The notes under the pieces are model-generated. The model saw nothing but the letters and a program-made list of their open reading frames with translations, was not told the origin of the DNA and searched no databases. Below are positions 6,785 to 64,000 of a stretch of 64,000 nucleotides of DNA, in pieces; position 1 is the stretch's first letter; the number at the start of each line of letters is the position of its first letter. Location: IMG/VR virus record IMGVR_UViG_3300032303_001800, positions 1-64,000 of that record; one strand, 5' to 3'. The stretch is from a virus. Lineage: Duplodnaviria; Caudoviricetes. The position numbers and the translations under genes are program-made.

Positions 6785-7045
6785 TTAGTAGTTGGTCTTA
6801 GCCAACTCGTAATGCTTCGCTACCGCTAGGGCTTTTCGTTGAGCAAGCACCGTCTTGCGCTGTTCGATGAGCAACAGGAACGGATAGACAAACAGATACC
6901 CGATGAGTACCGATGTCGCAACATCCCCATAGTGCCACCACTTATCCAGCGTAATGCCAAGCGTTTCCTGACCGCGAGAGACTACGCCGGTACAGAGCGT
7001 AACCGCCACACAGAGAGCCACTAGAACCTTCATGCGGAACTTCAT
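6785..7045 (-). CDS. Small membrane protein
   Basis: Two hydrophobic stretches; coupled to the 7045..7278 gene. Confidence 0.65.
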   Translation of the reverse strand: MKFRMKVLVALCVAVTLCTGVVSRGQETLGITLDKWWHYGDVATSVLIGYLFVYPFLLLIEQRKTVLAQRKALAVAKHYELAKTNY

Positions 7046-7278
7046 TATTCACCATCCTCATCATCGAAATCGTCATCCTCAAAGCGTTCGCTTTCGAGAG
7101 CGACATCAAACCACTCCATAACGGTACGGAGCAGAGCATCGTAGTCTCCAGCCGTAGCCTCGGCGTGGAACTCACTCCACTCATCGTAGCGACCCGCCCG
7201 CTTCATAGCGGTAGAGCAAGCCCCAAGTATGGAGAAAGCGTTACCATCGCCCAACTCCACTTTCATTTTTTCTGACAT
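7045..7278 (-). CDS. Conserved phage hypothetical protein, acidic tail
   Basis: GNAFSILG...GDYDALL pattern; FEDDDFDDEDGE C-terminus; GAAAGGTAG RBS. Confidence 0.75.
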   Translation of the reverse strand: MSEKMKVELGDGNAFSILGACSTAMKRAGRYDEWSEFHAEATAGDYDALLRTVMEWFDVALESERFEDDDFDDEDGE

Positions 7279-7549
7279 AACTACCTTTCTTGTATGGGTG
7301 TTTCCCTTACGATGAAAACACTACCACAAAACACACCAAACTTTTGACACATCGCGCACGCGCGATAGCAAAAATCTTGCGCGATGACGGTGACACCGGC
7401 AAAGAGAAACCCCCCACCGGTCTGAAAGGGATAAGCGACCAATGGGGGGTGGGGCGGTCGGGGGAAAGAGAGTAACCCCTAACGCCACCTAGAACTTGGA
7501 AAGGTGGGGGGTGAGAAACCTAGTGGAATCCCACCCCCCGATGAAGCGA

Positions 7550-7897
7550 TTAAAACCCTTGTAAAAACTCCTGCGCCTCATCTACGGCATCCTTGATAGC
7601 GATGTCCTCAATGACATGACCGTAGTTCTCATTAAAGAAACTACTAAGCCTACGAAGGATGATTTCGAGGCTAAGCCCCTTAAACCCTACTTCTTGTGGG
7701 ATGTCCTCATGAGCGATACCCTCTACGGCATTAACCATAGCAGAGTGTATCTCCTCTAGCAACTTGACTAGGAAACCTAGTTCGCCCACCTCAAGAGTGA
7801 CATCTATCTTCTCCATAAGAGGAGCATCAACATTACCAAAGTCCTCGTTGATGAACTCAAAGAGAAATGTCTCCTTGTCGTTGTTGTTGTTATCCAT
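7550..7897 (-). CDS. Acidic hypothetical protein
   Basis: Start refined to MDNNNNDK after GAAAGG RBS; the longer ORF call reads through intergenic repeats. Confidence 0.7.
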   Translation of the reverse strand: MDNNNNDKETFLFEFINEDFGNVDAPLMEKIDVTLEVGELGFLVKLLEEIHSAMVNAVEGIAHEDIPQEVGFKGLSLEIILRRLSSFFNENYGHVIEDIAIKDAVDEAQEFLQGF

Positions 7898-8118
7898 CTC
7901 TACTGCCTTTCTTGTCGTATCCCTTACGACAACAATCACTCTACCACACATCGAACCGGAAATGTGGAACATCGCGCGTGCGCGATACAAATGCTCATCA
8001 GAAACTTTCCAGAAATCTTCGAGAAACGCAAGCGTCGCGCATGCGCGATGAAGAAAAACCTGCGCGATGTAAAGGGGAGTTGGCAAGGCGAACACTTGTT
8101 CGCCCCGCCGGTGAATCA

Positions 8119-9021
8119 CTACTCCTCTTCGCCCCACTTCTTGCTTTCGATACCTAGCACTAGGTCGCACGCTTTCTGCGCTCTGCTGGCACTCTTGACC
8201 AAGATTTTCGGGTCATTCTTGAGTACCTTTAGCCACCCTGCGATGTACGCGGTGCTGTTTTCGATAGTGCTAGGAGCGATGCCGGTTTCCGCGCATAGGA
8301 AGGTCGCTGTGAACTCCGCGACTAACTCCTCTTCGCTGTATGTCGCATCGCCAAAGTAGTGCGCTTCGACTACACCTTCGCGTGCTAGTCGGCTCTTGTG
8401 TCCGGTGCTGTGCGCTGTCTCATGGAATAGCGTTGAGTAAAACGCTTCATCGCTTGTGAAACTATCCTGCTTAGGCATCGTCACCGCATCGCTACTAGGT
8501 GAGTAGTAGGCACGCTCTCCGGCAAAGGTAAGGCTAGGCGCTCCGGTGCGGGCGTAGTAGGCATCCACGATGCTCTGCGCTCCTTCGATGATGGCAACAT
8601 CTCCGCGTACCTCTCCGCGCTCCGTTGTCGGCATCTCCTTCTCTACCCACTCCGCTTGCTCCGCGTTAAATACGCTGAAGTAACGCATTACGGCACTCTT
8701 CTTGAGTTTGCCATCCTTGTCGGTAGTCTCTAGTGGTTTCCACAACACTACCGGCGTACTCTTCTCACCCTTCTTGACCTTGCCACCCATCGCTTCTATC
8801 TGCTTGTAAGTTCCCCACCACTTGCTTGTGTATCCACCGGCTATGGTCGCAAACATTAGGAGCATCTTGTTAGTACCGTTGTATGCCTTCTTGCTACTAA
8901 GGCTAGTTGGATACACTCCCGATGTAGTCCACTCCTTACGCCACGCGGGGATGCCACCCTTCTCTAATGCTTCGATGATGCCTTGTGCCACAATCTCGTA
9001 GGGACTCTTTCTCTTTTCCAT
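8119..9021 (-). CDS. ardC: ArdC-like antirestriction ssDNA-binding protein with zincin-like domain
   Basis: N-terminal PAWRKEW...YNGTN...TYKQ...GGKVKKGEK; C-terminal HETAHSTGH, YSEEELVAE, YIAGWL. Confidence 0.92.
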   Translation of the reverse strand: MEKRKSPYEIVAQGIIEALEKGGIPAWRKEWTTSGVYPTSLSSKKAYNGTNKMLLMFATIAGGYTSKWWGTYKQIEAMGGKVKKGEKSTPVVLWKPLETTDKDGKLKKSAVMRYFSVFNAEQAEWVEKEMPTTERGEVRGDVAIIEGAQSIVDAYYARTGAPSLTFAGERAYYSPSSDAVTMPKQDSFTSDEAFYSTLFHETAHSTGHKSRLAREGVVEAHYFGDATYSEEELVAEFTATFLCAETGIAPSTIENSTAYIAGWLKVLKNDPKILVKSASRAQKACDLVLGIESKKWGEEE

Positions 9022-9192
9022 AACTACCTTTCTACCTAGTCACTCTAACTAGGTGCTTTCACCTTACACCCTAGCAGACCGGAACCGGTCGCATCGCGCG
9101 TGCGCGATAACGAAAATCTTGCGCGATGACACCGATGTACCAAAAGAAAAGCGGGGCCGACCTAAGCCGACCCCGCCTCTCGACACCTTCGA

Positions 9193-9351
9193 TTAGATGA
9201 TGTCAAACTCCTTGAGGATGTTGTCAATGTTTCTGTCCAGCAACTCGAAGAGAGCCTTCTTCGACTTCTCATCCAAATGCTCGAAGTCGTACTCGTTGAG
9301 AGCAAGTACGTACTCGTACCACACTCCGTCAATCGTTTCACCCTTTGCCAT
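9193..9351 (-). CDS. 52-aa hypothetical protein (not in ORF track)
   Basis: MAKGETIDGVWYEY...KEFDII; GAAAGGTAG RBS; own cassette. Confidence 0.6.
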   Translation of the reverse strand: MAKGETIDGVWYEYVLALNEYDFEHLDEKSKKALFELLDRNIDNILKEFDII

Positions 9352-9562
9352 TACTACCTTTCATGTTGGCAACCTACCAACTACAACCACATTAGCACAT
9401 CGAACTAACCAAAGAAACGTCGCGCATGCGCGATACAAAAGGTCATCAGAAAGTTTAGGGAAATCTTCCTGAGACACCCGTAACGTGCCACGTGCGCGAT
9501 GAAAATATCGCGCGTTAGACGCATGCGCGATACCCATGCGCGATGACGGCGGGGAATACCCC

Positions 9563-10006
9563 TTATTCCCCCCTCTCGTAGTAGGGGAAGAACTCGAAGG
9601 ATGCGCCCATCTCATCGTGGCTACTCCGCGTGACCCTGAGTGTTCTGTTCTCGAAGTCGTACTCCCAGCGCAGGATGTAGTCTCCGTTGATGCCGAGCAT
9701 GGCTACTAGTCCGTCTGCCGTATCGGTGTGGGCGCTGTCTGCTGTCTGCCGTTGCCATCCCATCCCTTCGGCGTGGATGTAGTAGTAGTCGGTGTCGGTG
9801 AAGTCATCCATCCATCCCTGAACGGTTGTCACGAAGTCGTTGCGGGCGTAGTCCCAGCAGTCTCCATAACACTCCGTAGTGGGCGTAACCGTTACTCCGC
9901 AGGTGTCGCACCTACCGCCGTTCGGTTCGCTGTCGTATCCGACACTACACTCCTCGCACCAATAGCAGGTACAAGTGTTAGTGAGTGTTCCTTTAATCGT
10001 TGCCAT
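9563..10006 (-). CDS. Hypothetical protein with N-terminal Cys cluster
   Basis: CTC, WCEEC, CDTC; GAAAGGAA RBS. Confidence 0.72.
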   Translation of the reverse strand: MATIKGTLTNTCTCYWCEECSVGYDSEPNGGRCDTCGVTVTPTTECYGDCWDYARNDFVTTVQGWMDDFTDTDYYYIHAEGMGWQRQTADSAHTDTADGLVAMLGINGDYILRWEYDFENRTLRVTRSSHDEMGASFEFFPYYERGE

Positions 10007-10163
10007 TGTATTTCCTTTCGTTGGTTGTTACTACAAGTTCCACTCTACACGCTGAGAACTAAAATCGGGGACATCGCGCGTGCGCGATAGCCCCAATCCT
10101 TGCGCGATGCTAGGGGGGGGATACCCCGCGGGGCGAACACTTGTTCGCCCCGCGAGGGTCGGC

Positions 10164-10454
10164 CTAACTCAACTCTTCCAACTCGCTCATCACCGCACGA
10201 ATGTCGGTGGTGATGCTGTCAAGGTCGCTGATGTTGTCGATGTCGCTCTGTGCGCTGTCAAGGTAATCCTTGGCGTGCTCGATGTTTCGCACCGCATCGG
10301 CCAACTCGCTCTGCGCCCCGCTGACATCATCCTCAAGGGATGAGAGGGAGTTCATAATCCCGCCCAATGTTTCACGTGGAACAATCACCACATCCTCACC
10401 CAACAATGCGGGCAACAACTCCAACAACTTCTGTACCGCTTCATCCTTAGTCAT
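10164..10454 (-). CDS. Acidic coiled-coil protein containing an internal parS site
   Basis: Heptad-rich 96 aa; the VPRET peptide is encoded by the parS palindrome. Confidence 0.7.
   Translation of the reverse strand: MTKDEAVQKLLELLPALLGEDVVIVPRETLGGIMNSLSSLEDDVSGAQSELADAVRNIEHAKDYLDSAQSDIDNISDLDSITTDIRAVMSELEELS
10368..10383. promoter_or_regulatory. parS: parS site (ParB binding)
   Basis: TGTTTCACGTGGAACA; matches bacterial parS consensus TGTTNCACGTGAAACA when read on the minus strand. Confidence 0.8.
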
Positions 10455-10600
10455 TATGACCCTTTCCGCTAGGTGCTTTACCTAACAGTTACAACTTACC
10501 AGAAAATCTACGAGGTGTGTCACATCGCGCACGCGCGATAGCCGAAAACCTTGCGCGATGGGGGGAGATTGGGATGGGGGTCGCCCCCCACCCCGCTCCC

Positions 10601-10990
10601 CTACATACTCGTAACCGTGAACCCGATGTAGTCTTCGATGTCAAGGTTAGGGATGAAGATGCGCTTCTTGTAGTCCAACAAGTAGGCGATGGTTTCATCG
10701 TCTAATCCAAGAGTCTCGCCTTCGTCATCCGTTCCACCGGTGATGACGATGTTACCCACCGTGACATCGGTGAGGCCGTAGGAGTCGGACCAAAGAGCGG
10801 TACCGTAGGAGTTTTGCTCCAACCCGTTCAGTTTGCCTTCTTCATTGACCCACATCTCAATACCGGTAGCGGGGAGTCTTACGCACTCAATCCATCCACC
10901 GACACCCTCTTTAAGCATCTCGTAGCAGTTGGAGTTATCGAACTCCACTACCTCGAACACTCCATCGGTGCTGACCTTAATAGCCTTCAT
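10601..10990 (-). CDS. DUF3846-like protein
   Basis: VGGWIECV, MWVNEEGKLNGLEQN, GNIVITG motifs; start refined to MKAIKV. Confidence 0.8.
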   Translation of the reverse strand: MKAIKVSTDGVFEVVEFDNSNCYEMLKEGVGGWIECVRLPATGIEMWVNEEGKLNGLEQNSYGTALWSDSYGLTDVTVGNIVITGGTDDEGETLGLDDETIAYLLDYKKRIFIPNLDIEDYIGFTVTSM

Positions 10991-11195
10991 ACTTACCTTT
11001 CCGCTAGTGAGTTTCACTAACAGCAATCATTGTAGCAGGTAAAAATCCAAACCGCTATTTTTTTTGCGCGATGAATACAAATCCTCCTCAGAGAGTTTTT
11101 GGAAATCTCCACACAGTCAAGCGTCACGCGTGCGCGATGCCGCTATCGCGCACCTGACTTATGCGCGATGACGATGGGGTAAAAAAAAATCAGAG

Positions 11196-11215
11196 TTATC
11201 CACAGGTTATCCACA
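11196..11215 (+). promoter_or_regulatory. Two tandem perfect DnaA boxes
   Basis: TTATCCACA at 11196-11204 and 11207-11215. Confidence 0.8.
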
Positions 11216-11241
11216 GGGCGGGGTTTCCCCCACCCTGCGGA

Positions 11242-11257
11242 TGTTCCACGTGAAACA
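11242..11257. promoter_or_regulatory. parS: parS site (ParB binding)
   Basis: TGTTCCACGTGAAACA, matches consensus; intergenic, 26 bp from the DnaA boxes. Confidence 0.85.
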
Positions 11258-11258
11258 T

Positions 11259-11546
11259 CTACTCCGCTGATGCCAGCAGAGCATTGTAGGTTTCGACTGC
11301 CCACGCCAGCGCCTTTTTACGCCCTGACACCCCGCGCCCAAAGGTGAGCCCGCTGATGTTTTCCGCGCCCTTGAGAGCGGTAAGGTGGCGGGACATCTTC
11401 ATCCCTGGGAACTTGATTTCCATCTCCAGCATGGAGATAACCATCTTTAGGCGGTAGGCATCCATCGCCATTTCGCCGGATACTACGCGGATGCCCGTTT
11501 CATCCTGCTCGACTTGCGAGCCATCGGGGAAGACTACGTTACTCAT
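11259..11546 (-). CDS. Hypothetical protein
   Basis: Start refined to MSNVVF after GAAAGGG RBS. Confidence 0.7.
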   Translation of the reverse strand: MSNVVFPDGSQVEQDETGIRVVSGEMAMDAYRLKMVISMLEMEIKFPGMKMSRHLTALKGAENISGLTFGRGVSGRKKALAWAVETYNALLASAE

Positions 11547-11756
11547 AATGCCCTTTCCGTTCGGTGATTTACCTAACAGGTACATAATACAGAAATTTTT
11601 TGATTGAGGGGTCTATCGCGCACGCGCGATGAAGAAAATCTTGCGCGATGACGGGTTAATATTGTTAAGTCAAGTCGAATCTTGCGCGATGACGTAAGAG
11701 GCAAGGGAAAAGGGAGCGAACAGACGTTCGCCCCCTAGTCCTTGTTGCCCGTTCTG

Positions 11757-11867
11757 CTACTCGCAGTCTAGGCAAGCCATGACCGGCATGAGCCGGTTTG
11801 TGTCCTTAGACCAGACACGGATGACGGTAAGAAAACTACCGACGTAACCACAGATGTCGCACTTCAT
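11757..11867 (-). CDS. 36-aa zinc-ribbon micro-protein (not in ORF track)
   Basis: MKCDICG...ACLDCE; own TTGACT-17-TATTGT promoter and GAAAGGGG RBS. Confidence 0.65.
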   Translation of the reverse strand: MKCDICGYVGSFLTVIRVWSKDTNRLMPVMACLDCE

Positions 11868-11893
11868 TTTACCCCCTTTCCCTTTCTGCTACC

Positions 11894-11922
11894 ACAATAC
11901 CCCGCCCACCAAAAAAAGTCAA
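11894..11922 (-). promoter_or_regulatory. Sigma-A type promoter
   Basis: TTGACT-17-TATTGT with a CGCG half-site just upstream of -35. Confidence 0.75.
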
Positions 11923-12024
11923 GTCGGTTTTTGCGCGATAGGGGAGAAATCTTGCGCGATAATGGCAACTTGACCGGCAGAATGCGGGGGATGCGCCCGC
12001 ATCCCCCGCATCTAGTCTAGAGAG

Positions 12025-12291
12025 TTACCTCTCTAGCACTACGGCATCCGGCGAAAGGGTAAAGCCGGAAAGCCCCTGACGAATAAACGTCTGATGGCGT
12101 GACGTTGTTTGACTGTAATACTGATTGTTGAGATGCGTAACGCTCTCGCCCTTTACTACTGCCATGAGAGTAGAGTACGAATACACGCGGTATTCCCCAT
12201 CGCCCCACATCTCGCCCCGCATTGTGTTAGCGGTGAATGGCTTACGGCTTGCGATGTATTCGCTTGCCTTTTTGTTTGTTACCTGTGGCAT
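12025..12291 (-). CDS. Hypothetical phage protein
   Basis: Start refined to MPQVTN; YRVYSY...YYSQTTSRHQ pattern. Confidence 0.7.
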   Translation of the reverse strand: MPQVTNKKASEYIASRKPFTANTMRGEMWGDGEYRVYSYSTLMAVVKGESVTHLNNQYYSQTTSRHQTFIRQGLSGFTLSPDAVVLER

Positions 12292-12447
12292 GTTTTGCCC
12301 TTTCTCTTTCGATAGTGAAACCTTACCAGAAAATCTAACCAAAAGTAGCATCGCGCATGCGCGATAGACCAAAATGATTGTTTTTTGTTGCGCGATGTGG
12401 TATAGGGAAGTTTCAGGCGGGGTCTCCCCCGCCCTACTCCCTACCGG

Positions 12448-12606
12448 CTAAAGAAACTCAAACGGGTCTCTATCCTCAAACATCTCCTCAAACGCCACGT
12501 AGGGCATCAGCGTAATGTCTCCGTACTCCGCTTCCGCGTCGAGCATGTTCTGAAGGATGCGCTCGTTTTGCTCGCGCTCCCCTTGGCTAATCTCTTTCTT
12601 TGGCAT
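12448..12606 (-). CDS. Small acidic hypothetical protein
   Basis: Start refined to MPKKEI after AAAGGAGG RBS. Confidence 0.65.
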   Translation of the reverse strand: MPKKEISQGEREQNERILQNMLDAEAEYGDITLMPYVAFEEMFEDRDPFEFL

Positions 12607-12756
12607 ATTGCCTCCTTTGCTTGTACTGCTTGATGTGTCCACAATAGCACCCTAATCTTAAATTTTAAAGCATCGCGCGTGCGCGATACAACAATGTGCG
12701 CGATACAACAATGGGGCATTGGGGGATGGGGCGCCCGCACCCATCCCCCCGCGCTC

Positions 12757-12954
12757 CTAATGATGCCAGCGCGTATCTGACACCTTGCGCCGAGTCTCCT
12801 TGTAGGTCTCAATGCGGGTCTCCCAGAAACCAACGGTATCCGATGCGAACCGGTTAGCGATTTCGAGCATCTCCGTAAGGCGGAGGATTTCGGCATCGAG
12901 CCCCGACAGGATGGCTAGTCCCATTTCCTTTGTAAGCGTTAGTGAATCATTCAT
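12757..12954 (-). CDS. Hypothetical protein
   Basis: 65 aa, GAAAGGGG RBS, own cassette. Confidence 0.65.
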   Translation of the reverse strand: MNDSLTLTKEMGLAILSGLDAEILRLTEMLEIANRFASDTVGFWETRIETYKETRRKVSDTRWHH

Positions 12955-13142
12955 TTCGTACCCCTTTCTTAAGGTACCCCTACCTTACTACCTGAAAACT
13001 ACAATAGAAACGTCGCGCATGCGCGATGACGTTAGTCCTAGCAGATTAAAAAAGTTAAGTCAAGTCAATCCTTGCGCGATGGACTCGGTGAGCGACAAAA
13101 AAGCGGGGCGGACATTACGCCCGCCCCGCCCGTTTGATTTGG

Positions 13143-13295
13143 CTAGCCTCGCCTAGCGTTGATGAAGTAGGCATTAGGGAAGATAGAGCGCCCCATTGCA
13201 ATTGCTTGTGGCAGGTCATCCGCCCCCACAAAAAAGTAAGACGAGAAATCTATCTCGCCGATGATGATGGCGTATTCCACCCTGTAAGTTTTCAC
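13143..13295 (-). CDS. 50-aa hypothetical protein (not in ORF track)
   Basis: GTG start, MKTYRVEY..., GAAAGGGG RBS. Confidence 0.55.
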   Translation of the reverse strand: MKTYRVEYAIIIGEIDFSSYFFVGADDLPQAIAMGRSIFPNAYFINARRG

Positions 13296-13418
13296 TTAAG
13301 CCCCTTTCATTTGGCTAAGACCACTTTAGCAGATTTTTTGAGGTAAAGAAACGTCGCGCGTGCGCGATGGTACCAACCCCAGAAAAAGCGGGGCAGGTTT
13401 TACCCTACCCCGCCCCTC

Positions 13419-13577
13419 TTAGTATTGCTTCTCTACTACCTTGACAACCGCCGAAAACGGCGCGTACTCAATACGGCACGCCGTTTCGATGGCAGTTTCG
13501 GCATCGGTAGATGGTGTGGTTATGGTGATGGTGTGACCACCATCCCGCTTGAGGGTAATCTCGAAAATGCTAATCAT
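13419..13577 (-). CDS. 52-aa hypothetical protein (not in ORF track)
   Basis: MISIFEITLKRDGG...EKQY, GAAAGGGG RBS. Confidence 0.6.
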   Translation of the reverse strand: MISIFEITLKRDGGHTITITTPSTDAETAIETACRIEYAPFSAVVKVVEKQY

Positions 13578-13804
13578 TGTAGGCCCCTTTCATTGGACTA
13601 GGACTATTGTAGCAGGTTTTGAGCAGTCTGGAAGCATCGCGCACGCGCGATACATAAGCCCGTCAGAAAATTCCCAGAAATCTTCGAGACAACTCCCCTA
13701 CGCATGCGCGATTATGTCTGCGCGATATGACGCACGTGTATTCGTGCGCGATGCCGACCGGATTAAAAAACTGAGAGCGAGCCGATTTCTCGACCCGCCC
13801 CGTT

Positions 13805-13918
13805 TCAGTTTTTACGCTTCAGAAACTTTTCGATGCACGCTGTGCAAAAGTCTCCGGCTGTGCTCCGGTTTGCTCCGCATCCCTTGCACTTGTGTTTTTT
13901 GTATCCCTTCGCTGGCAT
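13805..13918 (-). CDS. 37-aa zinc-ribbon micro-protein (not in ORF track)
   Basis: CKGC...CTAC, basic; GAAAGGGG RBS. Confidence 0.62.
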   Translation of the reverse strand: MPAKGYKKHKCKGCGANRSTAGDFCTACIEKFLKRKN

Positions 13919-14068
13919 CTTCGCCCCTTTCATTTGGCTGACTCCATTGTAGGCAGATTTGCCGAAAAAAAGCAAGTTTCGCGCATGCGCGATGGGGGAA
14001 AAGTCTGTTACACTTTGCGCGATGAGGGGGCTGGGTTTGGAGCGGGGGTTTCCCCCCGCCCCGCGCCT

Positions 14069-14239
14069 CTAGTCCTCCTCTTCTTCGATGCTGTCCTCGT
14101 ACTCGACTACGCCGATTTGGTAGGCGATGGGGTCGCAGTCAAAAAGGATTTGGCTGGGGTAAAAGGTCATTGAGCCGATGGAGTAAGTGGGGTAGCACTC
14201 ATCCAGCATTTCGTCGAATCCTTCGTGTCGCTGTGTCAT
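14069..14239 (-). CDS. 56-aa acidic hypothetical protein (not in ORF track)
   Basis: FDEMLDECYP...PSQIL..CDPIAYQIG...EEEED; GAAAGGT RBS. Confidence 0.68.
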   Translation of the reverse strand: MTQRHEGFDEMLDECYPTYSIGSMTFYPSQILFDCDPIAYQIGVVEYEDSIEEEED

Positions 14240-14400
14240 TTTCTTACCTTTCGTTTTTCGGTTTTCCCGATGCTTCTATTGTAACAGAAAAATCTAACTA
14301 ATCAACTATCGCGCATGCGCGATGGCCAAAAACTGTGTTATTGTTTGCGCGATGACGTAGGGGGTCGGGTTTAGGGGCGGGCTCACGCCCGCCCCCGCCC

Positions 14401-14598
14401 CTACTTTCTAAGTTTGAGGATGATGAGCGCCGTAGCGAACGATGCCACCACTCCTAGAGCAAGTGAAACCAACCACACCAGAGCGGGCGCGGTCAAGTCA
14501 CCTACTGCCTTAGTGCTGGCGATGTAGGCAAACGCATAGACGATTACCCCCATGAGCAGAGCGAACAACTTTTCGCCCCTAGTACCTTCGCGTGTCAT
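14401..14598 (-). CDS. Small two-TM membrane protein
   Basis: Two hydrophobic helices; TTGACT-16-TATGCT promoter at 14637-14664; start refined. Confidence 0.68.
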   Translation of the reverse strand: MTREGTRGEKLFALLMGVIVYAFAYIASTKAVGDLTAPALVWLVSLALGVVASFATALIILKLRK

Positions 14599-15081
14599 TG
14601 TTACCTTTCCGTAGGGCGTTTGCCCTAACAATGAACAGCATAACAGGATGAGCGATTAAGTCAAGTATTTTTTTGCGCGATGGATACAAAAGCCCCTCGG
14701 AAAGTTCCCAGAAATCTTTGGGAGAACCTGGCTACGCATGCGCGATTGTATGTGCGCGATTACATGTGCGCGATGCTCGGCGCAGGGGCAAAGCAAAAGG
14801 GGCGGGCTTGCGCCCGCCCCCCTGCCGGTGGCTACTGCCAGAGTTTCCACCAGACCCACCCGCCCCCGATTTGGGCGCGGTCAGAGAAATGCGAGGTGAT
14901 GCGACGGATAAGAGGGCGAACTGCCTTCATTTTAACCCCTTTCAGTTGGTTAGTTACATTGTAGCAGATTTTTTAGACTTTGGAAGCATCGCGCGTGCGC
15001 GATGGACAAAAACTGTGCTAAACTTTGCGCGATGTTAGGGGGGGAGTTGGGGGCGAACACTTGTTCGCCCCGCTCCGCGCC

Positions 15082-15204
15082 CTAGAGCCACACCTCCGCA
15101 ACCTCGCAGGGAGCGCACGCCTCAAGCGTGACGCACGAACGCGAGGCGGGTGAATACACCTCGACCTCGACCGTGGGGGCATCGGCCCCGCAAAAATCGC
15201 ACAT
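15082..15204 (-). CDS. 40-aa zinc-binding micro-protein (not in ORF track)
   Basis: MCDFCG...EACAPCE; GGAAGGG RBS. Confidence 0.6.
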   Translation of the reverse strand: MCDFCGADAPTVEVEVYSPASRSCVTLEACAPCEVAEVWL

Positions 15205-15344
15205 AATAACCCTTCCGCGGGGGAGCATCCACCGCTAGAACCACAATAGCAGGAAAACGCCGAGGTGGGGAAAATCGCGCATGCGCGATGACTTGACACG
15301 GGGCAAAAGAAGAGGGGCGGGTTTCCCCGCCCCTCCCCCGCGTG

Positions 15345-15524
15345 CTACATGTAGTCGCACGCCTCGTTTTCCGCGCCGTGCGTGGATGGGGTGCCCCAAA
15401 CGATTTCGGTGGGGGTGCCATCGTAGAACGGTTCGATGTGACCGCAGGCGGAACAGCGAACGGAAAGCACATCCGAGATGGGGCAAAGGCGTGCGCCCTC
15501 GTCCCCGCAAAATGAACACTTCAT
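15345..15524 (-). CDS. 59-aa zinc-ribbon micro-protein (not in ORF track)
   Basis: MKCSFCG...RCSACGH; GAAAGGGA RBS; TTGCTT-17-TAGACT promoter upstream. Confidence 0.65.
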   Translation of the reverse strand: MKCSFCGDEGARLCPISDVLSVRCSACGHIEPFYDGTPTEIVWGTPSTHGAENEACDYM

Positions 15525-15811
15525 AAATCCCTTTCGTTTTATCGGCTTCGTTACCGATAGGAGAGAGTCTAGTCAGACTATTTAGGGAAAGCAACTATTT
15601 TTTTGCGCGATACAAAAAAGATACAGAAACTTCACAGAAACTTTTCCAGAAAGTTTAGTGCGCGTGCGCGATTGCGTGTGCGCGATGATTTCCGGACAGA
15701 GAGTTTCCCAGAAATCGCGCACGCGGGAGACAATACCGTGCGCGATGGACTCGGCGGGCAAAAAAAAGAGGGGCAGGGCTCACGCCCCGCCCCCCCCTCA
15801 AAGGCTCCCCC

Positions 15812-16030
15812 CTAAAACCATCGGGAGATGCCCGCCCAAAGGCGTAGGGCATCCTCTCGGGTGCGGTAGAGGTGTCCGTCATCGCTCAACGGCTTACCAT
15901 CGGCGCCAAACAGGGTAAGCGTGAAGAAAGAGCCGTGGTCAAACTCATGGCTCGGGTTGTAGTGGCGGTTGATGGTCGCCGTGACCTCACCCGCGGGCGA
16001 AGTGAGAGTGTCAGTCAGTTCGTAAATCAT
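15812..16030 (-). CDS. Hypothetical protein
   Basis: 72 aa; GAAAGGGA RBS; strong promoter upstream. Confidence 0.7.
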   Translation of the reverse strand: MIYELTDTLTSPAGEVTATINRHYNPSHEFDHGSFFTLTLFGADGKPLSDDGHLYRTREDALRLWAGISRWF

Positions 16031-16075
16031 TGTAAATCCCTTTCGTACTCACCGGCATTGTTGCCGATGGTACAG

Positions 16076-16104
16076 AGTTTAGTGAGCGTTTTTTAGAAAG
16101 TCAA
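16076..16104 (-). promoter_or_regulatory. Sigma-A type promoter abutting CGCG palindrome
   Basis: TTGACT-17-TAAACT; the palindrome at 16107-16122 ends 2 bp upstream of -35. Confidence 0.78.
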
Positions 16105-16203
16105 GCATCGCGCGTGCGCGATAGGGGAAAACCCCGATAAACTTTGCGCGATGACGTAGGGTTTGGTTTGGGGGCGAACACTTGTTCGCCCCCGCCCCTT
16201 GCC

Positions 16204-16482: not shown

Positions 16483-16828
16483 TGTAAAACCCTTTCGGTT
16501 GGTGTCGGTATTGTTACCGATGGTACTGAGCCTAGTGAGCAAAAAAGTAAAAAGCAACTATTTTTTTGCGCGATACATTTGTTCGTCAGAATGTTTTCAG
16601 AAATCTCAGCGGGGGCGTTGGGTTACGTGCGCGATGGATTTTGTGCGCGATACATTTGTTTGTCAGAAAGTTTTCCAGAAACATCGCGCAGGGGTTTCCG
16701 TATGCGTGCGCGATACATTTTCTCCTCAGAAAGTTTCCAGAAATCCTCGGAGCGCGCAGGGGTTACGTGCGCGATGCCGATGGCGAACAAGTGTTCGCCG
16801 CAAAAAAGCGAACATTTGTTCGCTTTAG

Positions 16829-16873
16829 TTATCCACAGACTTATCCACAGGCTGTGGTTTATTCTGTGGGTTA
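16829..16873. promoter_or_regulatory. DnaA-box cluster
   Basis: Perfect TTATCCACA at 16829-16837 and 16841-16849; two inverted 2-mismatch boxes at 16853-16861 and 16865-16873. Confidence 0.78.
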
Positions 16874-17055
16874 TTGGATGGCGAACGCTTGTTCGTTTTC
16901 TCCTATTCCTGACTAGTTAAGTCATGTTTCGGGCGGGCGTGCGGGGGTATGCGTTTTTATGCGTGGAGATGTGTTTTTAATCATCGGGCTAGATGTGCGC
17001 GATGTGGCGCGTAGGGCGCGGGATGTGATAACATCCCGCGCCCATCGTGGCGCGT

Positions 17056-18018: not shown

Positions 18019-18208
18019 GTTGTTACCTTTCGTTGAGTGGCGAACGCGGGCGCGCTCTTTAACCACACTCAAACAATACACCAACCATTACACGCAAGCA
18101 GCCATTGGGACCAATGCAGTGCCCACACGTCTGAATTTTACACCTCCTATATAAGAACATATGTTCAAACCGTAGACAGGCTACAAAAAGTATGCTATGC
18201 TATCACAC

Positions 18209-18982: not shown

Positions 18983-19190
18983 TCCTTTGCGATAGCAAAG
19001 ACCCAATAACCCAAATTTTAAGAAAAATTTTTGATGCGCCGTTGGCGCGCGGGCAAAAAATTTTTTAGGCCTATGCCCAGAATTTTTTTAGGTGTTTCTA
19101 CTGTTATGAACAAATGTTCAGAGGGGCCCTTAAATAAATAGAATGTGTCTTGCGTATTTTGGCAAAGCAGGTCAAACTAGACAGAAAGTT

Positions 19191-29849: not shown

Positions 29850-31349
29850 ATGGCTAATGATTTGCAAGAAGCCCTGACTGCTGCGGGTGCTGCTGCACTC
29901 GTACAAAAGCAGATTGACCCAGTTTTGCTTGAGTACCAGCGTCGCTATGCGCCGCTCGTTCGCTCGCTTCCCTCGGTCAAGTGGGGCTCAACCGTTTACT
30001 ATTTCAACAAGCGTACGTCGCTGCCTTCTGGTGGTTTCGTAACCGACGGCGGTGCTCGCACTGTCTCGACCTCTAACTACGCCCAGGAGAACTTCCAGAT
30101 TCGTCTGCTCCAGAGCGTCGGTGCGGTCACCGGTTACTCACAGGCTGTTACGCAGGACCTGATTGGCGACCTCCGGGCTCGCGAAATCGAAGGTGCTGCT
30201 CGCGGTCTCTACTGGGACATCGAAAACGCCCTTATCTGGGGTAACGAAGCCGCCACCAAGAACGGCGCTTACCCGCAGTTCGACGGTCTCGACACTATCG
30301 TTGCTTCATTCACCTCTGGCTCAGCGCTTCCCGCTTGGCAGTCCGGTGGTGCTATTGACAACTACGGTGGCGCTCAGGGCGCTAACGGCTGGGGTACTGA
30401 ACTTTCATCAGCGGGCGTGCCTAACGCTTACACGCCTTGGACCGATGGTGTAGACCAGAACGCTATTGACGCGGCTGGCGCAACCCTTTCACTCGCTTAC
30501 CTCGACCAACTCATCGACATGGTTGAATCCAACGTCGCCGAGCCAATCGACAACTCCGAGTGGAACTTCGTAATGTCACCTACCGCCAACAGCAAGTTGG
30601 CCCAGTTGCTCACCAACCAGCAGCGTTTCGTTGACCAGGTTGAAGTTGCAGCCGGTTTGATTGTTCCCACCTACCGTGGCGTTCCAATCATCAAGTCGTC
30701 GTTCCTGTCACCTCGTTCCAACGTTATGGGCGCAGTGACCGCAGCAACGACCACCACCGGTGGTTCAATTGGTGCAAGCACGACGTACCACTACCGTGTG
30801 TCGGCTGTAATCGCCCGCTTCGGTGAAATTCAGGCTTCTGCCACCGTTTCACAGGCGAGCGGTTCAGGCACCTCCACGAACACCGTGGTTCTGTCCTTCT
30901 CGGTTCCTACGGGTCCTGACGGCGCTCAGCCTACGCACTACAAGGTGTACCGCGGTACGTCTTCAAGCAACCACACTCTTCTGGGTTGTGTTGACGCTTC
31001 GTTGGTTGACTCCAGCGGTTCGCTCTACAACACCATCAAGATTACTGACACTGGTGGCGCTTTGGTTCCCGGCAACGGCGCGAATGTTCCTGCCATTGCT
31101 CCTTCAGCGTACTACTACACGAACACCGGCTTGAAGCCTCTGGACGCCGGTTCACAAAGCATCTTCTTGATGTCACGTGACCCCAACTACATCGTACGTC
31201 CTTACGTTCGTGAGATGCAGCCAATCAACGTGTACCCAACCACTGCTTCGCCTGACAGCCTGCCATTCGCCTTCGTTGCGGACACCACGCTGGCAGTTCG
31301 CGGTCCCAAGTTCTTGGGCCGTCTTGCGAACATTGTTGCGGCACTGTAG
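29850..31349 (+). CDS. Major capsid protein with inserted beta-sandwich domain
   Basis: Position after scaffold, strong AGGAG RBS, biased codons; insert YHYRVSAV...HYKVYRG. Confidence 0.88.
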   Translation: MANDLQEALTAAGAAALVQKQIDPVLLEYQRRYAPLVRSLPSVKWGSTVYYFNKRTSLPSGGFVTDGGARTVSTSNYAQENFQIRLLQSVGAVTGYSQAVTQDLIGDLRAREIEGAARGLYWDIENALIWGNEAATKNGAYPQFDGLDTIVASFTSGSALPAWQSGGAIDNYGGAQGANGWGTELSSAGVPNAYTPWTDGVDQNAIDAAGATLSLAYLDQLIDMVESNVAEPIDNSEWNFVMSPTANSKLAQLLTNQQRFVDQVEVAAGLIVPTYRGVPIIKSSFLSPRSNVMGAVTAATTTTGGSIGASTTYHYRVSAVIARFGEIQASATVSQASGSGTSTNTVVLSFSVPTGPDGAQPTHYKVYRGTSSSNHTLLGCVDASLVDSSGSLYNTIKITDTGGALVPGNGANVPAIAPSAYYYTNTGLKPLDAGSQSIFLMSRDPNYIVRPYVREMQPINVYPTTASPDSLPFAFVADTTLAVRGPKFLGRLANIVAAL

Positions 31350-59237: not shown

Positions 59238-59621
59238 TCAGCCTCCTGATTCTCGGTACGAAGCCATAAGGCTACGTAGTGACTCTTGGTTACTGCGTGC
59301 AGTCAAAATAGCCTGCTTAGTAGCATCGTGCTCTGCCCGCAAACCCTCGGCTTTACGCCGAAATTCTACAGTTGCCATTACAGCGATGTCTTCTGCCATG
59401 TCTGCTGTTACCTTCATGCCGTGTTCACCACTAACGCGAGCCTCATAGCGTGCTATGTGAAAGTTGGCTTTGTGGTCGGCTTCGGCGGCTGACATGTCTC
59501 TCGCAAGTTCAGCAAGGCGCTCAGTCATTGACTCCTGATGGTTCATAAGACGAATCATTTCGTTTTCGATGTCAACGTAACTAAGCGTCTTGCCAGACTT
59601 TGCTTGGCTTTGTAGGCCCAT
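59238..59621 (-). CDS. Helical hypothetical protein
   Basis: 127 aa coiled coil, coupled to ssb. Confidence 0.68.
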   Translation of the reverse strand: MGLQSQAKSGKTLSYVDIENEMIRLMNHQESMTERLAELARDMSAAEADHKANFHIARYEARVSGEHGMKVTADMAEDIAVMATVEFRRKAEGLRAEHDATKQAILTARSNQESLRSLMASYRESGG

Positions 59622-60025
59622 TAGAAGGGTTCGTACGAACTTCCACCGGAGTTACCACCACGGGCGCCAGCGCCAGCGGTAGCACGTTCGGTCTTAATGA
59701 CACTAGCGCGGTCAAAGCGGAGCGATACGCCCACTTCATCTGCAATAACTTCTACTGAAGTTCCGGGCGTGCCATCCTTCTTTTCGTAACTGCGGACCTC
59801 AAGGCGACCAGAGACGGTAGCGCGGTTGCCACGGGTGAGCGTGTTTGCCACGTTCTCAGCCATACCGCCGAAAGTAACAACGTCATAGAAAGACGTGCGT
59901 TCTTCACCGCTCTTATCCTTGTGATTTACGGCTACGGCAAATCGTGCAACCTGCATACCGCTGTCCGTAAAACGGATTTCTGGGTCGCGGGTCAAATTGC
60001 CTGCAATTGTGATGTGTGAATTCAT
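59621..60025 (-). CDS. ssb: Single-stranded DNA-binding protein
   Basis: ITIAGNLTRDPEIRFT, VSGRLEVRSY, acidic-aromatic EPF tail. Confidence 0.95.
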   Translation of the reverse strand: MNSHITIAGNLTRDPEIRFTDSGMQVARFAVAVNHKDKSGEERTSFYDVVTFGGMAENVANTLTRGNRATVSGRLEVRSYEKKDGTPGTSVEVIADEVGVSLRFDRASVIKTERATAGAGARGGNSGGSSYEPF

Positions 60026-60034
60026 TATAACTCC

Positions 60035-60889
60035 TTACTGAAGTGACTTAAAGTGTTCGATGAGAATCTTGGCTTCATCCATCGACAGGTCGGTCAACTT
60101 GTCCGAGCGACGGTGGATAACTGCGTCAATCGCATCCCACATCTGGGGGTCGTCCATGCTGAGACCCTTGTGTGTGATTGCCCAAATAGCGCGGGTTTGC
60201 GCTTCTGATGCCATCTTGCCACCACCACCGACCGATACGGCCTGTGTTGGCTTGCCGGCAGCCGCACGCACGGTGTCACTAAGACTCTGTGGCGCCTGCT
60301 TGCGTACCGGCTCTTGGTAAGAACTGTAGGACTGCTCCTCGTGAGAAGCATCTGGGTCTTCGTCTCCCGTAGGAATCCAGAAGAACTGCTTAAAGAAATA
60401 CTTAGCCGCGGTAGCAAGAGCCTTGTTCATCGCCTTGTCTGCGGTGTCTGAAGCCTCTCCGACCATCGTAGAGACAATAGTGTCACCGGCGGGACCGACA
60501 ATGGTGTATTCCACCACTACGGTTGCAAAGTGAGCAATGGTTGCCTTGCCGGAAGAGTTCACACCCTCACGGTCGTAAGCACTCTGGCTAATGATGTTCG
60601 GGTAGATGGTAAGACCGTTCTTGATAAGAGCGGGCTGTACCTCTGCAGTAATGGCTTCGATGCCGAGAAACTTGTAACGCTGATTCTCGTTGTAGCCATT
60701 CTTGGCGATAAAACCAACGTCTTCCATAGCCCCACGCACCGCTTCGTAAACGGTAGGCAGTCCACTGTTGGATGCTGTCATGTTGTTTGTTCCTTCCTCA
60801 TATTCGGTCATATCGACCTCTTCAAATGAAATGTTAGCCGCTTCCAAGAGTTGTGTCAAGTCTGGCGGGGTAATTTTTGCGGCGGTCAT
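60035..60889 (-). CDS. ERF-family ssDNA annealing recombinase
   Basis: YKFLGIE, GEASDTADKAMNKA..AAKY, IPTGDEDPD. Confidence 0.9.
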   Translation of the reverse strand: MTAAKITPPDLTQLLEAANISFEEVDMTEYEEGTNNMTASNSGLPTVYEAVRGAMEDVGFIAKNGYNENQRYKFLGIEAITAEVQPALIKNGLTIYPNIISQSAYDREGVNSSGKATIAHFATVVVEYTIVGPAGDTIVSTMVGEASDTADKAMNKALATAAKYFFKQFFWIPTGDEDPDASHEEQSYSSYQEPVRKQAPQSLSDTVRAAAGKPTQAVSVGGGGKMASEAQTRAIWAITHKGLSMDDPQMWDAIDAVIHRRSDKLTDLSMDEAKILIEHFKSLQ

Positions 60890-61908
60890 TACTTCACTCC
60901 TCTAAGTGTGCGAGAACTGGGGCGGAACTTCTTGAACTGCTCAAAGATTTCGGGGGCCTCACGCCTCAAACGGTCGGTGTCCAAAGATTCTACCTCTTTA
61001 CCAGCCTTGTAAGTCAGAATAACGTTCCCGTCCACAGTAGCGTACTCGGCGTTACCGACTACTTCAATAATCTTGGCACGAAGACCCTTGCGGACTTTAT
61101 CGGCCTCTTCTGCGGCCACCTTGGCGGCACTGAATTCCTCCCAGAGCGACTTCAGTTCCATGCCACCCTCAAGGCCCTTGCCGGCTTCGTGGCGAGGGTA
61201 ACGGGCTGCTTGCGCTGCTTCTGTGGCATCAGAACCGTCGACTTCGGGTGCAGTGTTGGTCTGAACAAGGTCCCAAAACTGTTGCTCAATGATAACTAGG
61301 TTTTCCGCGAGTTCTTCGTCCCAAGCAAGGTGACGAACCTGCAAACCCGTTGGCGGCAAAAGCGCCGCAAAGATAATCTCGTGAACGCCTGTGACAATTC
61401 CGTAGTGAACGGTTTGCAAAACGTAACTTTGAGGGATGGAATTGTTCGACCACTGGTGCACGGTGCCGGGGCTGGCAATGCCCGAGGTCTTGACTTCAAG
61501 GATTGCCTTGACCCCCGCTGGCTCAATGTTGTTCTTCCAGTCGGTTACAACGCCGACAGGGAAATCCGGGGTGGGCTCGACAATCCAAAAGTCGATATTG
61601 GCGAACATAAAGTCATTCTTTTCTGATACAAGAATGACCGGCCATGCCACGACGGCCTGCTTGTGGTCGTGGGCGTACTTCTCTGCAATAACGCGCTCTA
61701 GTCGGTGGCCCCAATCGGTAGCCTCATTGCCTACGTTTTCACGTTCAATAAGGTTGGTACGTTCAGCCCACAAAGCGTAGGCAGACTTGTACTTGTTGAC
61801 ACCACAAACGGTACCGGCGTCAGAACCGCCGAGACCATTGGCGCGGTAGGCCAACCACTCTTCTTCGGGCATGTCCCACGTTGGGATGATTGCTTTGAAC
61901 TTATTCAT
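60889..61908 (-). CDS. YqaJ/lambda-exonuclease-like recombination nuclease
   Basis: WLAYRANGLGGSD, WGHRLE, ANID, LEVKT, Y..Q..HY. Confidence 0.93.
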   Translation of the reverse strand: MNKFKAIIPTWDMPEEEWLAYRANGLGGSDAGTVCGVNKYKSAYALWAERTNLIERENVGNEATDWGHRLERVIAEKYAHDHKQAVVAWPVILVSEKNDFMFANIDFWIVEPTPDFPVGVVTDWKNNIEPAGVKAILEVKTSGIASPGTVHQWSNNSIPQSYVLQTVHYGIVTGVHEIIFAALLPPTGLQVRHLAWDEELAENLVIIEQQFWDLVQTNTAPEVDGSDATEAAQAARYPRHEAGKGLEGGMELKSLWEEFSAAKVAAEEADKVRKGLRAKIIEVVGNAEYATVDGNVILTYKAGKEVESLDTDRLRREAPEIFEQFKKFRPSSRTLRGVK

Positions 61909-62131
61909 TGTTACTTTCCTTTATCTTAATAGTGCGAGCGACATTGTCCTCAAACTCGAGGGTCCCACTCTCTCGCAACTCCTGACACACATTATACACA
62001 GTTCCGAGCGATAGTCCAGTCAATTTTGCAAGGTCTCTAAAACTAGGACCATACTTGTGACTGGAGTACCAAGAAACAACCGCCTCCCTGACGGCAACCG
62101 TGTTAGAAACTCTAGTATTAAATGTCGTCAT
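61901..62131 (-). CDS. LexA-like winged-helix DNA-binding domain only (no peptidase domain)
   Basis: [18 protein letters not shown]...L...G.L....ARTIKI aligns with the LexA N-domain PPSVREI...RAIRI; 76 aa; overlaps the recA stop. Confidence 0.78.
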
Positions 62132-63152
62132 CTTCAACAACCTCTTCGACCTCAACAACTCCGATGGTTTCCATCACGCGGTTATAAATTTCTTGATACA
62201 ACGCTGGGTCTTCCTTTAGACGCTTTTTGGTTTTTTCTTTACCCTGACCAATGTTTTCGCCTTCATAGTTGAAGTACGCACCGGCACGGCGCAAAATCCC
62301 CAAGTCAGTAGCGCAATCAATAAGCACACCATACCTAGAAACGCCAACACCGTACTCAAGGTCAAACTCTGCCTGACGGAAAGGTGGTGCTACCTTGTTT
62401 TTGGCAACCTTGACGCGGGTGCGGTTAGCAGTTGATTCCTCGCCGGTTTTAATGGTCTGAATACGACGAATGTCAAGACGGACTGACGAGTAGTAAGGCA
62501 GGGCTTTGCCACCGGGGGTGTACTCGCTAGGCCCATACATCACACCAATCTTTTCACGCAATTGATTGATGAAAATAACCAACGTGTTGTTAATGGACGC
62601 GGCGTGGGTCATCTTGCGAAGTGCCTGACCCATAATTCGAGGCATGAGCCCGACGTGATGGTCGCCCATCTCGCCTTCAATTTCGGCACGGGGGACCAAT
62701 GCGGCTACGGAGTCAATGACAACAAGGGCCACCTCGCCGGACTCGATAACCCGAATGGCGGTCTCTAAACCCTGCTCCGCGTTGGCGGGCTGGGAGAGAA
62801 TAAGAGACTGAACATCAATGCCAATAGCCTGTGCGTACACAGGGTCAAAAGTGTGTTCAGCGTCAATGTAGACACAGGTCAAACCGAGCGATTGTGCAGA
62901 TGCAATAGCGTGCTGAGCAACGGTTGACTTGCCCGACGAAGTGGGGCCGAAGAACTCGACAATACGGCCTCGGGGCAAGCCACCAACGCCCAAAGCCATG
63001 TCCAACGGCAAAATGCCGGTAGAAATAGTTTCTACGGGGACAATATCTGAGTTGTCAAGGCGCATGATTGCACCTGCACCAAACTGCTGATTGATGGAGT
63101 CAATGACGGATGCGAGGCTTCCACCGCGCGGGGCTGAGGTTTTCTTAGCCAT
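62118..63152 (-). CDS. recA: RecA recombinase
   Basis: [68 protein letters not shown]. Confidence 0.97.
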
Positions 63153-63240
63153 ACCAATCCTTTCTTAGATTGAACATCAGTATAGCAACTTTGCTGTACA
63201 TCCGTTCATTTACATGTTAAGATTACCAGTAAGGAGGATT

Positions 63241-64000
63241 ATGCAACTTTCGTATAACTACGCGTGGCTTGTCGAAGATGAAATTTTTGTGCGTGCCCGT
63301 TTTCAACCAGGGTTTGTAGAGGACTGCCGAGACATTGAGGGTAGGCGCTGGGAGCCAAAAGACAAACTGAATGTCTTCCCTACCTCGCAGGCAGTTTCCG
63401 TTAAGGCGCTCGCAGACAAATGGAAGGTTATGCTTTCACCGGAAGTGTACGCGCTTCTATCCGTTTCGGAAGACGAACTGTCAATGCCAGCCGGGGAATT
63501 CAACCTGGATGTAGAAGAAGGTGAAGTAGTAGTTCGCTTTCCCTACAATCCACGACTCATTAATACCATTAAATCTATGGTCCCCGGTTGTAAATGGAAT
63601 AACGAAAAAAAATTTTGGCAAATTCCACAGTCAAATTACGTTAATCTCCTAGAGTTTGCTACCGCAAACACCTTTACGTCATCTGAAGAATTTTTGATTC
63701 TTATGAATGACACAGTGAAACTCATTGATGAACAACGTACAGCGTCATCTGCGTTAGATGCAGACATAGTTATTCCGAACATGGTAGGCGAGTTGATGCC
63801 GTATCAGCGTGCTGGGGTTGCGTACTTAAAAAAGGCTAGGAAGGCAATCCTCGGCGACCAGCCCGGACTTGGAAAAACCGTCCAAGCACTCGCGACTATT
63901 GCGTCGGAGGACGCGTGGCCGGTGGTTATCGTGTGCCCGAACACCCTGAAGTATAACTGGATGCGGGAGACCGCCCGTTTCTTTCCCCATCTCAATGTGG
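63241..64000 (+). CDS. SNF2/SMARCAL1-like helicase with HARP-like N-terminus (truncated by window end)
   Basis: GGAGG RBS; open frame to the end; LMPYQRAGV, LGDQPGLGKTVQAL, VIVCP. Confidence 0.88.
   Translation, partial: MQLSYNYAWLVEDEIFVRARFQPGFVEDCRDIEGRRWEPKDKLNVFPTSQAVSVKALADKWKVMLSPEVYALLSVSEDELSMPAGEFNLDVEEGEVVVRFPYNPRLINTIKSMVPGCKWNNEKKFWQIPQSNYVNLLEFATANTFTSSEEFLILMNDTVKLIDEQRTASSALDADIVIPNMVGELMPYQRAGVAYLKKARKAILGDQPGLGKTVQALATIASEDAWPVVIVCPNTLKYNWMRETARFFPHLNV

Follow-up and report, generated by a model that had tools for sequence, protein, structure and literature searches.

What part does a LexA-like DNA-binding head, devoid of the LexA peptidase, play when its gene starts within the end of a phage recA gene? 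The question arises from a 76-residue protein, here termed mini-LexA, that is encoded in a 64,000-nucleotide stretch of viral DNA (hereafter the window). The window covers the initial 64 kb of an IMG/VR virus record (IMGVR_UViG_3300032303_001800) that is 78,430 bp long, has direct terminal repeats and is rated complete; coordinates given below are those of the window. Phages monitor the SOS system of their hosts through LexA boxes. Bacterial recA promoters usually carry a LexA box, and its core, GAAC-N4-GTTC, is by default read by host LexA. Isolated N-terminal domains of LexA bind the operator specifically and pair on DNA. We conclude that mini-LexA is very probably an uncleavable, stand-alone LexA head that is translationally coupled to phage recA, and we ask which DNA sites it might read.

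Results

Mini-LexA is the second gene of a phage recombination operon

The mini-LexA gene occupies positions 61901-62131 on the minus strand, with its ATG at 62131, its coding sequence at 62131-61904 and a TAA stop codon at 61901-61903. It follows phage recA (62118-63152, minus strand), which encodes 344 residues and matches the Pfam families RecA and RecA_C with 364 and 67 bits. A preliminary description of the locus had placed the mini-LexA start in the recA stop region, and the coordinates bear this out: the ATG lies within the final five codons of recA, which ends at 62118, and the two genes share 14 nucleotides (nt) on the minus strand (62118-62131; ATGACGACATTTAA), an arrangement of translational coupling. 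A purine-rich AAGAGG is found 9 nt 5' of the ATG. At the other end of the gene, the mini-LexA stop overlaps by 8 nt (61901-61908, ATGAATAA) with the ATG of a YqaJ/RecE-like exonuclease of 339 residues (60889-61908, minus strand; Pfam YqaJ 89 bits, PHROG 434). Genes for an ERF annealing protein (60035-60889; Pfam ERF 65 bits) and for SSB (59621-60025; Pfam SSB 95 bits) come next on the same strand. This layout shows mini-LexA to stand second in an operon made up of recA, mini-LexA, exonuclease, ERF and SSB, carried on the same mRNA as phage RecA and translationally coupled to it.

Linker, cleavage site and S24 peptidase/dimerisation domain are all absent from the protein. The absence of a C-terminal Ser-Lys autoprotease, already pointed out in the preliminary description, is real: mini-LexA ends at residue 76, the YqaJ exonuclease is encoded next, and neither an S24-type repressor nor a Peptidase_S24 domain was found in the six frames of the whole 78,430-bp genome. 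As the Ser-Lys peptidase is absent, mini-LexA is not expected to be a repressor that cleaves itself in response to RecA*.

Sequence profiles connect mini-LexA to the LexA DNA-binding domain

The direct match of mini-LexA to the Pfam family LexA_DNA_bind (PF01726), at 13.4 bits and E 0.068, does not reach the curated cut-off of 23.7 bits, and generic winged-helix families are matched as well (HTH_IclR with 22.4 bits, HTH_36 and HTH_24). Searching all six frames of the genome with PF01726 returned nothing, though hmmscan on the mini-LexA protein gives the match just cited. PF01726 is matched at E<=0.1 by 13 of 23 close relatives, the best reaching 6.6e-6. A profile built from the 23-member family retrieved 635 proteins at E<=1e-3 from 1.84 billion representatives, nearly all of them stand-alone proteins of 65-85 residues; among the best 150 matches, 122 have at most 110 residues. 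LexA_DNA_bind is matched by 108 of 128 such distant relatives at E<=0.01 (best 2.1e-18), and the next family, HTH_24, by 63 of the 128. When compared with the sequences of solved structures, the 23-member profile gave no significant match (best E 0.19); with a joint profile of the 128 relatives, the nine best sequences are all LexA (E 8e-16 to 1.6e-13), followed by the next at 9e-7. Moreover, hhalign aligned the 23-member family with P0155, a two-domain LexA-family protein (LexA_DNA_bind 55 bits, Peptidase_S24 58 bits), at 97.7% probability and E 1.8e-12 over 64 columns, laying residues 10-73 on the LexA N-domain. The identity of mini-LexA to P0155 is 31%, and that to any LexA is low. The likeness to the LexA N-domain that had been noticed from the sequence is thus borne out by profiles, despite the sub-threshold direct Pfam match.

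The nearest known proteins point the same way. In a language-model search, nine of the ten nearest named ESM-Atlas clusters consist of proteins of ~70 residues, mostly viral, described as 'LexA DNA binding domain'. Among the 128 relatives, 120 match PHROG 3502 (unnamed) and 85 match PHROG 362 ('transcriptional repressor'). One relative (P0044) matches both a 'putative LexA-like repressor' of Bacillus phage Wip1 and a 'LexA DNA-binding domain' protein of Bacillus phage 11143. By these sequence comparisons, mini-LexA is a member of an old, large and mostly viral clade of stand-alone LexA heads of ~70 residues. The label 'peptidase-less LexA' in the preliminary description therefore fits as far as a LexA head without peptidase is meant, but not in the sense of a recent truncation of a host lexA gene. 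The distant relatives also include tandem proteins of two to four LexA heads with no other domain (P0023, P0026, P0028, P0054 and P0154), fusions that agree with action as paired heads.

The AlphaFold2 model of mini-LexA (predicted local distance difference test, pLDDT, 85.3) is a three-helix winged helix, comprising helices 3-24, 31-38 and 42-55 and a beta hairpin. LexA heads superpose on it with Z 9.7-10.1 and a root-mean-square deviation (rmsd) of 1.7-2.3 Å over 66-68 residues; individual LexA structures reach a template-modelling (TM) score of 0.74 at rmsd 1.3 Å (1lea) and Z 10.1 (3jsp). Foldseek with the same model yielded no match at E<=1e-3. The preliminary description had looked to structural matches for a decision between LexA and other helix-turn-helix proteins. 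LexA heads do align well, but other winged helices tie: in VIA-align, IclR/TtgV, Z-alpha, Rrf2, ROK, LexA and DtxR heads all score Z 9.5-11.2, so that structure alone leaves the choice undecided. It is by profile-level sequence evidence, and not by structure, that we regard the LexA kinship of mini-LexA as established.

The gene and its place beside recA are conserved

Relatives of mini-LexA were found in seven protein clusters of a 5.8-billion-protein collection, at 35 IMG/VR loci and at 27 JGI metagenome loci, with 36-83% identity. They are 71-86 residues long, none is fused to another domain, and an alignment of 23 family sequences contains 13 invariant columns. All 35 IMG/VR loci, together with the 26 JGI loci that have a recombination-gene match in their flanks, show the same gene order: a divergent SNF2 helicase gene, recA, mini-LexA, YqaJ exonuclease, ERF, SSB, a 127-residue protein, an HNH protein and WhiB. 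In 16 distinct loci whose open reading frames were traced, recA and mini-LexA overlap by 8-20 nt in 14, and the mini-LexA stop mostly overlaps or abuts the exonuclease start. At a distant member (L102, on a 2.3-kb contig), no recA match is found within 1.5 kb upstream. The linkage to recA was read within this phage lineage.

Direct searches of 50,697 GenBank phages found neither a DNA nor a protein match. Scans of viral and metagenome contigs with the single protein for more distant relatives gave no matches, and a scan of species genomes gave a single, spurious partial match only. The closest RecA genes of isolated phages, those of Mycobacterium phages Kumao and Bask21, are not followed by a mini-LexA. 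The conservation within the lineage confirms that mini-LexA is a real, conserved gene.

A LexA-type box fills the spacer of the recA-operon promoter in most relatives

The recA-operon promoter lies in the SNF2/recA intergenic region, which was compared among relatives L002-L036 and L076-L101 and in the window (63153-63240). In the relatives, GAAC-N4-GTTC exactly fills the spacer between a TTGACA-like -35 element and an extended -10 element, and it therefore stands in the position of a repressor site. Of 15 distinct loci, 11 have an exact box, three have one core mismatch and L003 has two mismatches. The further members L088, L096 and L101, some of which are much more divergent (RecA 54-62% identical), carry an exact box too. 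Its columns hold the highest information content of the aligned promoters. In the partial contigs G006-G014, moreover, the recA-promoter box is the only, or almost the only, GAAC-N4-GTTC box. That a LexA-head gene and a LexA-type operator in the promoter driving it are kept together suggests autoregulation.

In the window itself, the predicted extended -10 of the operon promoter, TGCTATACT (63179-63187, minus strand), was read from the sequence and is of the same element type as that aligned in the relatives. Upstream of it lies a degenerate LexA-type box, GAACGGATGTAC (63196-63207, minus strand), which has one core mismatch and is the counterpart of the relatives' exact box. An AGCAA-N2-TTGCT inverted repeat overlaps the -10 in the window phage.

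Several other features of this region were recorded. For the SNF2 helicase gene, a start at ATG 63241, preceded by AGGAGG at 63232-63237, is likelier than one at the first ATG (63214), and a further extended -10, TGTTAAGAT, is found at 63215-63223, near the helicase start (63214-63243). In relative L016 (6023-6036; record G008 near 8398), the coding sequence of mini-LexA contains a CGAACAGTTGTTC box in its 5' part, which may be chance.

A CGCG palindrome accompanies predicted promoters in the window and in some relatives

A second candidate target in the window is the palindrome ATCGCGC-N2-GCGCGAT, of which 30 sites within two mismatches are present compared with 0.3 expected, all of them between 3.0 and 17.8 kb. 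Each palindrome (minus strand, 3048-16122) is followed, 24-27 nt downstream, by an extended -10, TGnTAnnnT, which puts the palindrome centre near -44.5. The -35 of these promoters is weak or poorly conserved, a T-rich tract lies upstream, and a GAAAGG ribosome site comes after, along with a small gene. The early arm would accordingly hold about 25 putative promoter cassettes of activator style, each built around the palindrome. The array recurs in relatives G002 (33 sites) and G005/G015 (16 sites).

The palindrome is not a constant companion of mini-LexA. The gene is present in the complete relative G004 (42% identity), which has no TCGCG...CGCGA palindrome; the promoters of G004 are of plain consensus type and have no shared upstream element. 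In G010 (the record behind L027; 896-6858), a shorter palindrome, TCGCGTACGCGA, lies 10 nt upstream of TTGACA-17-TGnTATAGT promoters, and in G006 (behind L018; 21717-25261) TCGCG-N2-CGCGA is mixed with TCGCG-N4-CGCGA. The predicted reading helix of mini-LexA differs in both (ALGYLFEIC in G006, SLGNVFSAC in G010), whereas the TCGCG half-site is unchanged. The preliminary description had proposed following both motifs across phages; when this is done, the CGCG palindrome does not track the gene, whereas the recA-promoter box co-occurs with it in nearly all lineages. Covariation of the recognition helix with either motif was uninformative, as the helix varies and both motif cores are constant.

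A reading of the CGCG palindrome as Z-DNA was considered and rejected. Z-alpha domains fit the mini-LexA fold with Z 10.8-10.9, tied with many other winged helices. Their signature comprises a conserved Asn and Tyr on helix 3 and a Pro-Pro-x-Trp motif on the wing. These residues are missing from the family alignment, which has no wing Trp or Pro-Pro and no Asn/Tyr pair at that helix-3 spacing. In addition, the palindromes of G002 mostly have CC, GG, TC or GA at their centres, and the alternation of purines and pyrimidines is therefore broken.

Other LexA-type boxes in the early arm

CGAAC-N4-GTTCG occurs eight times exactly in the window, and ten times within one mismatch compared with 2.5 expected. 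Three of these, GCGAAC-N4-GTTCG(C) boxes, form a cluster flanking two DnaA boxes at 16785-16894 and are candidate operators for host LexA or mini-LexA. The cluster has counterparts in G003 and G005, and the DnaA-flanking arrangement is common to G003. Two further candidate operators, both with the GAAC-N4-GTTC core, are a GAACATATGTTC box at 18155-18166, within the divergent intergenic region 18085-18196, and a GAACAAATGTTC box at 19108-19119.

Perfect DnaA boxes (TTATCCACA / TGTGGATAA) are conserved near the box cluster, at 16829-16849 in the window, 706-748 in G003 and 30827-30870 in G002. In G002, ~20 tandem GCGCGTGG repeats (30.64-30.82 kb) adjoin the DnaA boxes, and no GAAC boxes are found there. 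The box at 16809 in the window forms a hairpin that is followed by U6 on the minus strand.

Host and lineage

Among the products of the window phage is a WhiB transcription factor (Pfam Whib 63 bits), which indicates an actinobacterial host, and the RecA of this phage is closest, among isolated phages, to that of Mycobacterium phage Kumao (57.6% identity). The lineage is one of diverse and abundant freshwater actinobacterial phages, tailed actinophages of ~80 kb. A six-frame search found no tyrosine integrase, and nothing points to a temperate lifestyle. The early arm also encodes, on the minus strand, an anti-restriction protein that resembles ArdC and has a zincin peptidase domain (8119-9021; ArdcN 104 bits, MPTase-PolyVal 128 bits), an AAA_5 ATPase (4850-5572) and a DUF3846 protein (10601-10990).

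Discussion

Stand-alone LexA heads of phages form a class that is already known, with one studied example. The gp6 protein of GIL01, a tectivirus of Bacillus thuringiensis, is a truncated homologue of LexA, which binds with nM affinity to a palindrome in a phage promoter; its 14-bp site is centred at -43.5 of the GIL01 late promoter, which gp6 activates, whereas host LexA together with gp7 represses from neighbouring boxes (PMC6182141). Both gp6 and mini-LexA are small phage proteins that consist essentially of the LexA winged-helix head without the peptidase domain, and in both phages promoters carry LexA boxes as well. For mini-LexA, however, there are candidate sites where gp6 has a bound one. 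Moreover, gp6 activates a late promoter of a temperate tectivirus, is 44% identical to the host LexA head and has no link to recA, whereas mini-LexA is translationally coupled to the recA of a tailed actinophage. The phage heads of PHROG 3502 and PHROG 362, such as those of Wip1 and 11143, resemble mini-LexA in size, domain and mostly viral origin; they differ in belonging mostly to temperate Firmicute phages, in lysogeny or early-control regions, and none was seen beside recA. Bacterial LexA shares with mini-LexA the homologous three-helix winged helix of its PF01726 N-domain (Z about 10) and the association with GAAC-N4-GTTC boxes and recA. Mini-LexA has neither the hinge in which LexA is cut at an Ala-Gly site nor the S24 Ser-Lys peptidase or dimerisation domain, and in the profile alignment its turn is one residue shorter than that of Escherichia coli LexA. 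Conserved coupling to recA, together with a LexA-type operator, makes mini-LexA a new variant of the known class.

As to function, we tentatively propose, at somewhat less than even likelihood, that mini-LexA is an uncleavable LexA-type repressor acting at GAAC-N4-GTTC boxes, that of its own promoter included. Two heads would pair on the DNA at these palindromes and, in most relatives, would occupy the box between the -35 and -10 of the operon promoter. As RecA* could not inactivate such a repressor, the recombination operon would come under negative feedback that is independent of the SOS state of the host. LexA-type operators on the phage genome, and possibly on that of the host, might also stay bound by mini-LexA while host LexA is cleaved through host or phage RecA filaments. 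A more far-reaching version, which we consider unlikely and in which the SOS-override idea of the preliminary description lives on, is an SOS 'reset' module, through which the phage would replace the global repressor of its host by a damage-blind copy. Host LexA would then hold the recombination operon through the promoter box, and the operon would open upon LexA cleavage, triggered by ultraviolet damage or by phage RecA filaments. Mini-LexA, made in fixed proportion to RecA, would take over the LexA operators and close its own operon. The host SOS regulon, with mutagenic repair, division arrest, resident prophages and SOS-triggered defences, would thereby be silenced for the rest of the infection.

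Several observations weigh against repression by mini-LexA at these boxes. The box of the window phage is not only degenerate, it is also 8 nt farther from the -10 than that of the relatives; the boxes of G002 and G005, the other phages with palindrome arrays, are degenerate too, and all three have kept the gene. Positions 44, 46, 47 and 50 of the recognition helix vary within the family, while the box core is constant. Host LexA would read GAAC-N4-GTTC boxes just as naturally, and since it is their default reader, conservation of the box does not by itself implicate mini-LexA. Five of the eight CGAAC boxes of the window (at 8089, 10134, 11717, 15054 and 16175) form the tips of hairpins that are rich in GC and stand at cassette ends. 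These hairpins (8076-8115, 10121-10160, 11704-11743, 15041-15080 and 16162-16201) have 10-16 bp, with folding free energies (dG) of -22.7 to -34.2 kcal/mol and z-scores of -3.9 to -8.2; the box makes up the apical 14 nt. They are terminator-like, mostly lacking a U-tract, and may be terminators rather than operators. Finally, the gp6 site is unlike a LexA box and gp6 activates, which means that homology to the LexA head predicts neither target nor sign. The link to phage SOS boxes drawn in the preliminary description gains support from the recA-promoter box of most relatives; the five hairpin-tip boxes need not be operators.

In a rival reading, host LexA alone reads the GAAC-N4-GTTC boxes. 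The phage recombination operon would then be a plain part of the host SOS regulon, and mini-LexA would be a repressor or activator with a different target. The boxes do match the core of Gram-positive and actinobacterial LexA and stay the same while the recognition helix of mini-LexA varies. Moreover, gp6 provides a LexA-head homologue with a non-LexA target, and the broad family is annotated as 'transcriptional repressor' (PHROG 362) or is unnamed (PHROG 3502). However, no other conserved motif was found to track the mini-LexA gene across the relatives, and the box in its own promoter is the one element that accompanies the gene in nearly all lineages; we consider this explanation somewhat unlikely. 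Another rival reading takes up the CGCG palindrome, which the preliminary description had also suggested as a target. Mini-LexA would in that case read the palindrome before about 25-30 promoters of the early arm (3-18 kb) and switch their cassettes on by class II activation in the manner of gp6. The near coincidence of the palindrome centre (-44.5) with that of the gp6 site (-43.5), the great excess of sites over expectation and the poorly conserved -35 all fit an activator; as the promoter of mini-LexA is free of the palindrome, mini-LexA could come first. Although gp6 thus offers a precedent, G004 retains the gene with consensus promoters and without the palindrome. In G010 the palindrome stands at a different phase, before full-consensus -35 and -10 elements, G006 mixes N2 and N4 spacings, and the helix differs in both phages while the half-site does not. 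The palindrome is accordingly the less likely target, and activation of the early arm by mini-LexA seems improbable.

A role outside transcription is less probable still. In actinobacteria, recX is a small gene that overlaps the 3' end of recA and is co-transcribed with it, and mini-LexA, strictly placed between recA and the exonuclease gene with overlaps at both ends, occupies a recX-like position. Its winged helix might modulate RecA, the exonuclease, ERF or SSB, or bind DNA structures instead of sequences, and weak matches to winged helices that bind proteins (RPA_C in 4 of 23 relatives, DprA_WH in 5 of 128) could be read in this sense. The likeness to recX is one of position only: RecX is built of three helical repeats and caps RecA filaments, whereas the mini-LexA model is a single winged helix, and no RecX match was found in Pfam at E<=1, nor any RecX chain among the best 50 matches of each of two structural searches. 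The sequence also has the DNA-reading features typical of a LexA head, and its homologues are transcription factors. A recombination accessory is, in our view, very unlikely.

Repression at GAAC-N4-GTTC boxes, our tentative reading, would bear on how phages deal with DNA-damage signals. In this lineage, a LexA head is hard-wired to phage RecA, and RecA is the very protein that destroys LexA. If mini-LexA binds the boxes, it would form a simple circuit that uncouples the phage, and perhaps the host, from DNA-damage signalling, and it would caution against taking the host protein as the reader of every 'LexA box' on a phage genome. Stand-alone LexA heads, as the example of gp6 implies, do not have to be repressors or to recognise LexA boxes; should mini-LexA bind elsewhere, it would be one more small phage regulator.

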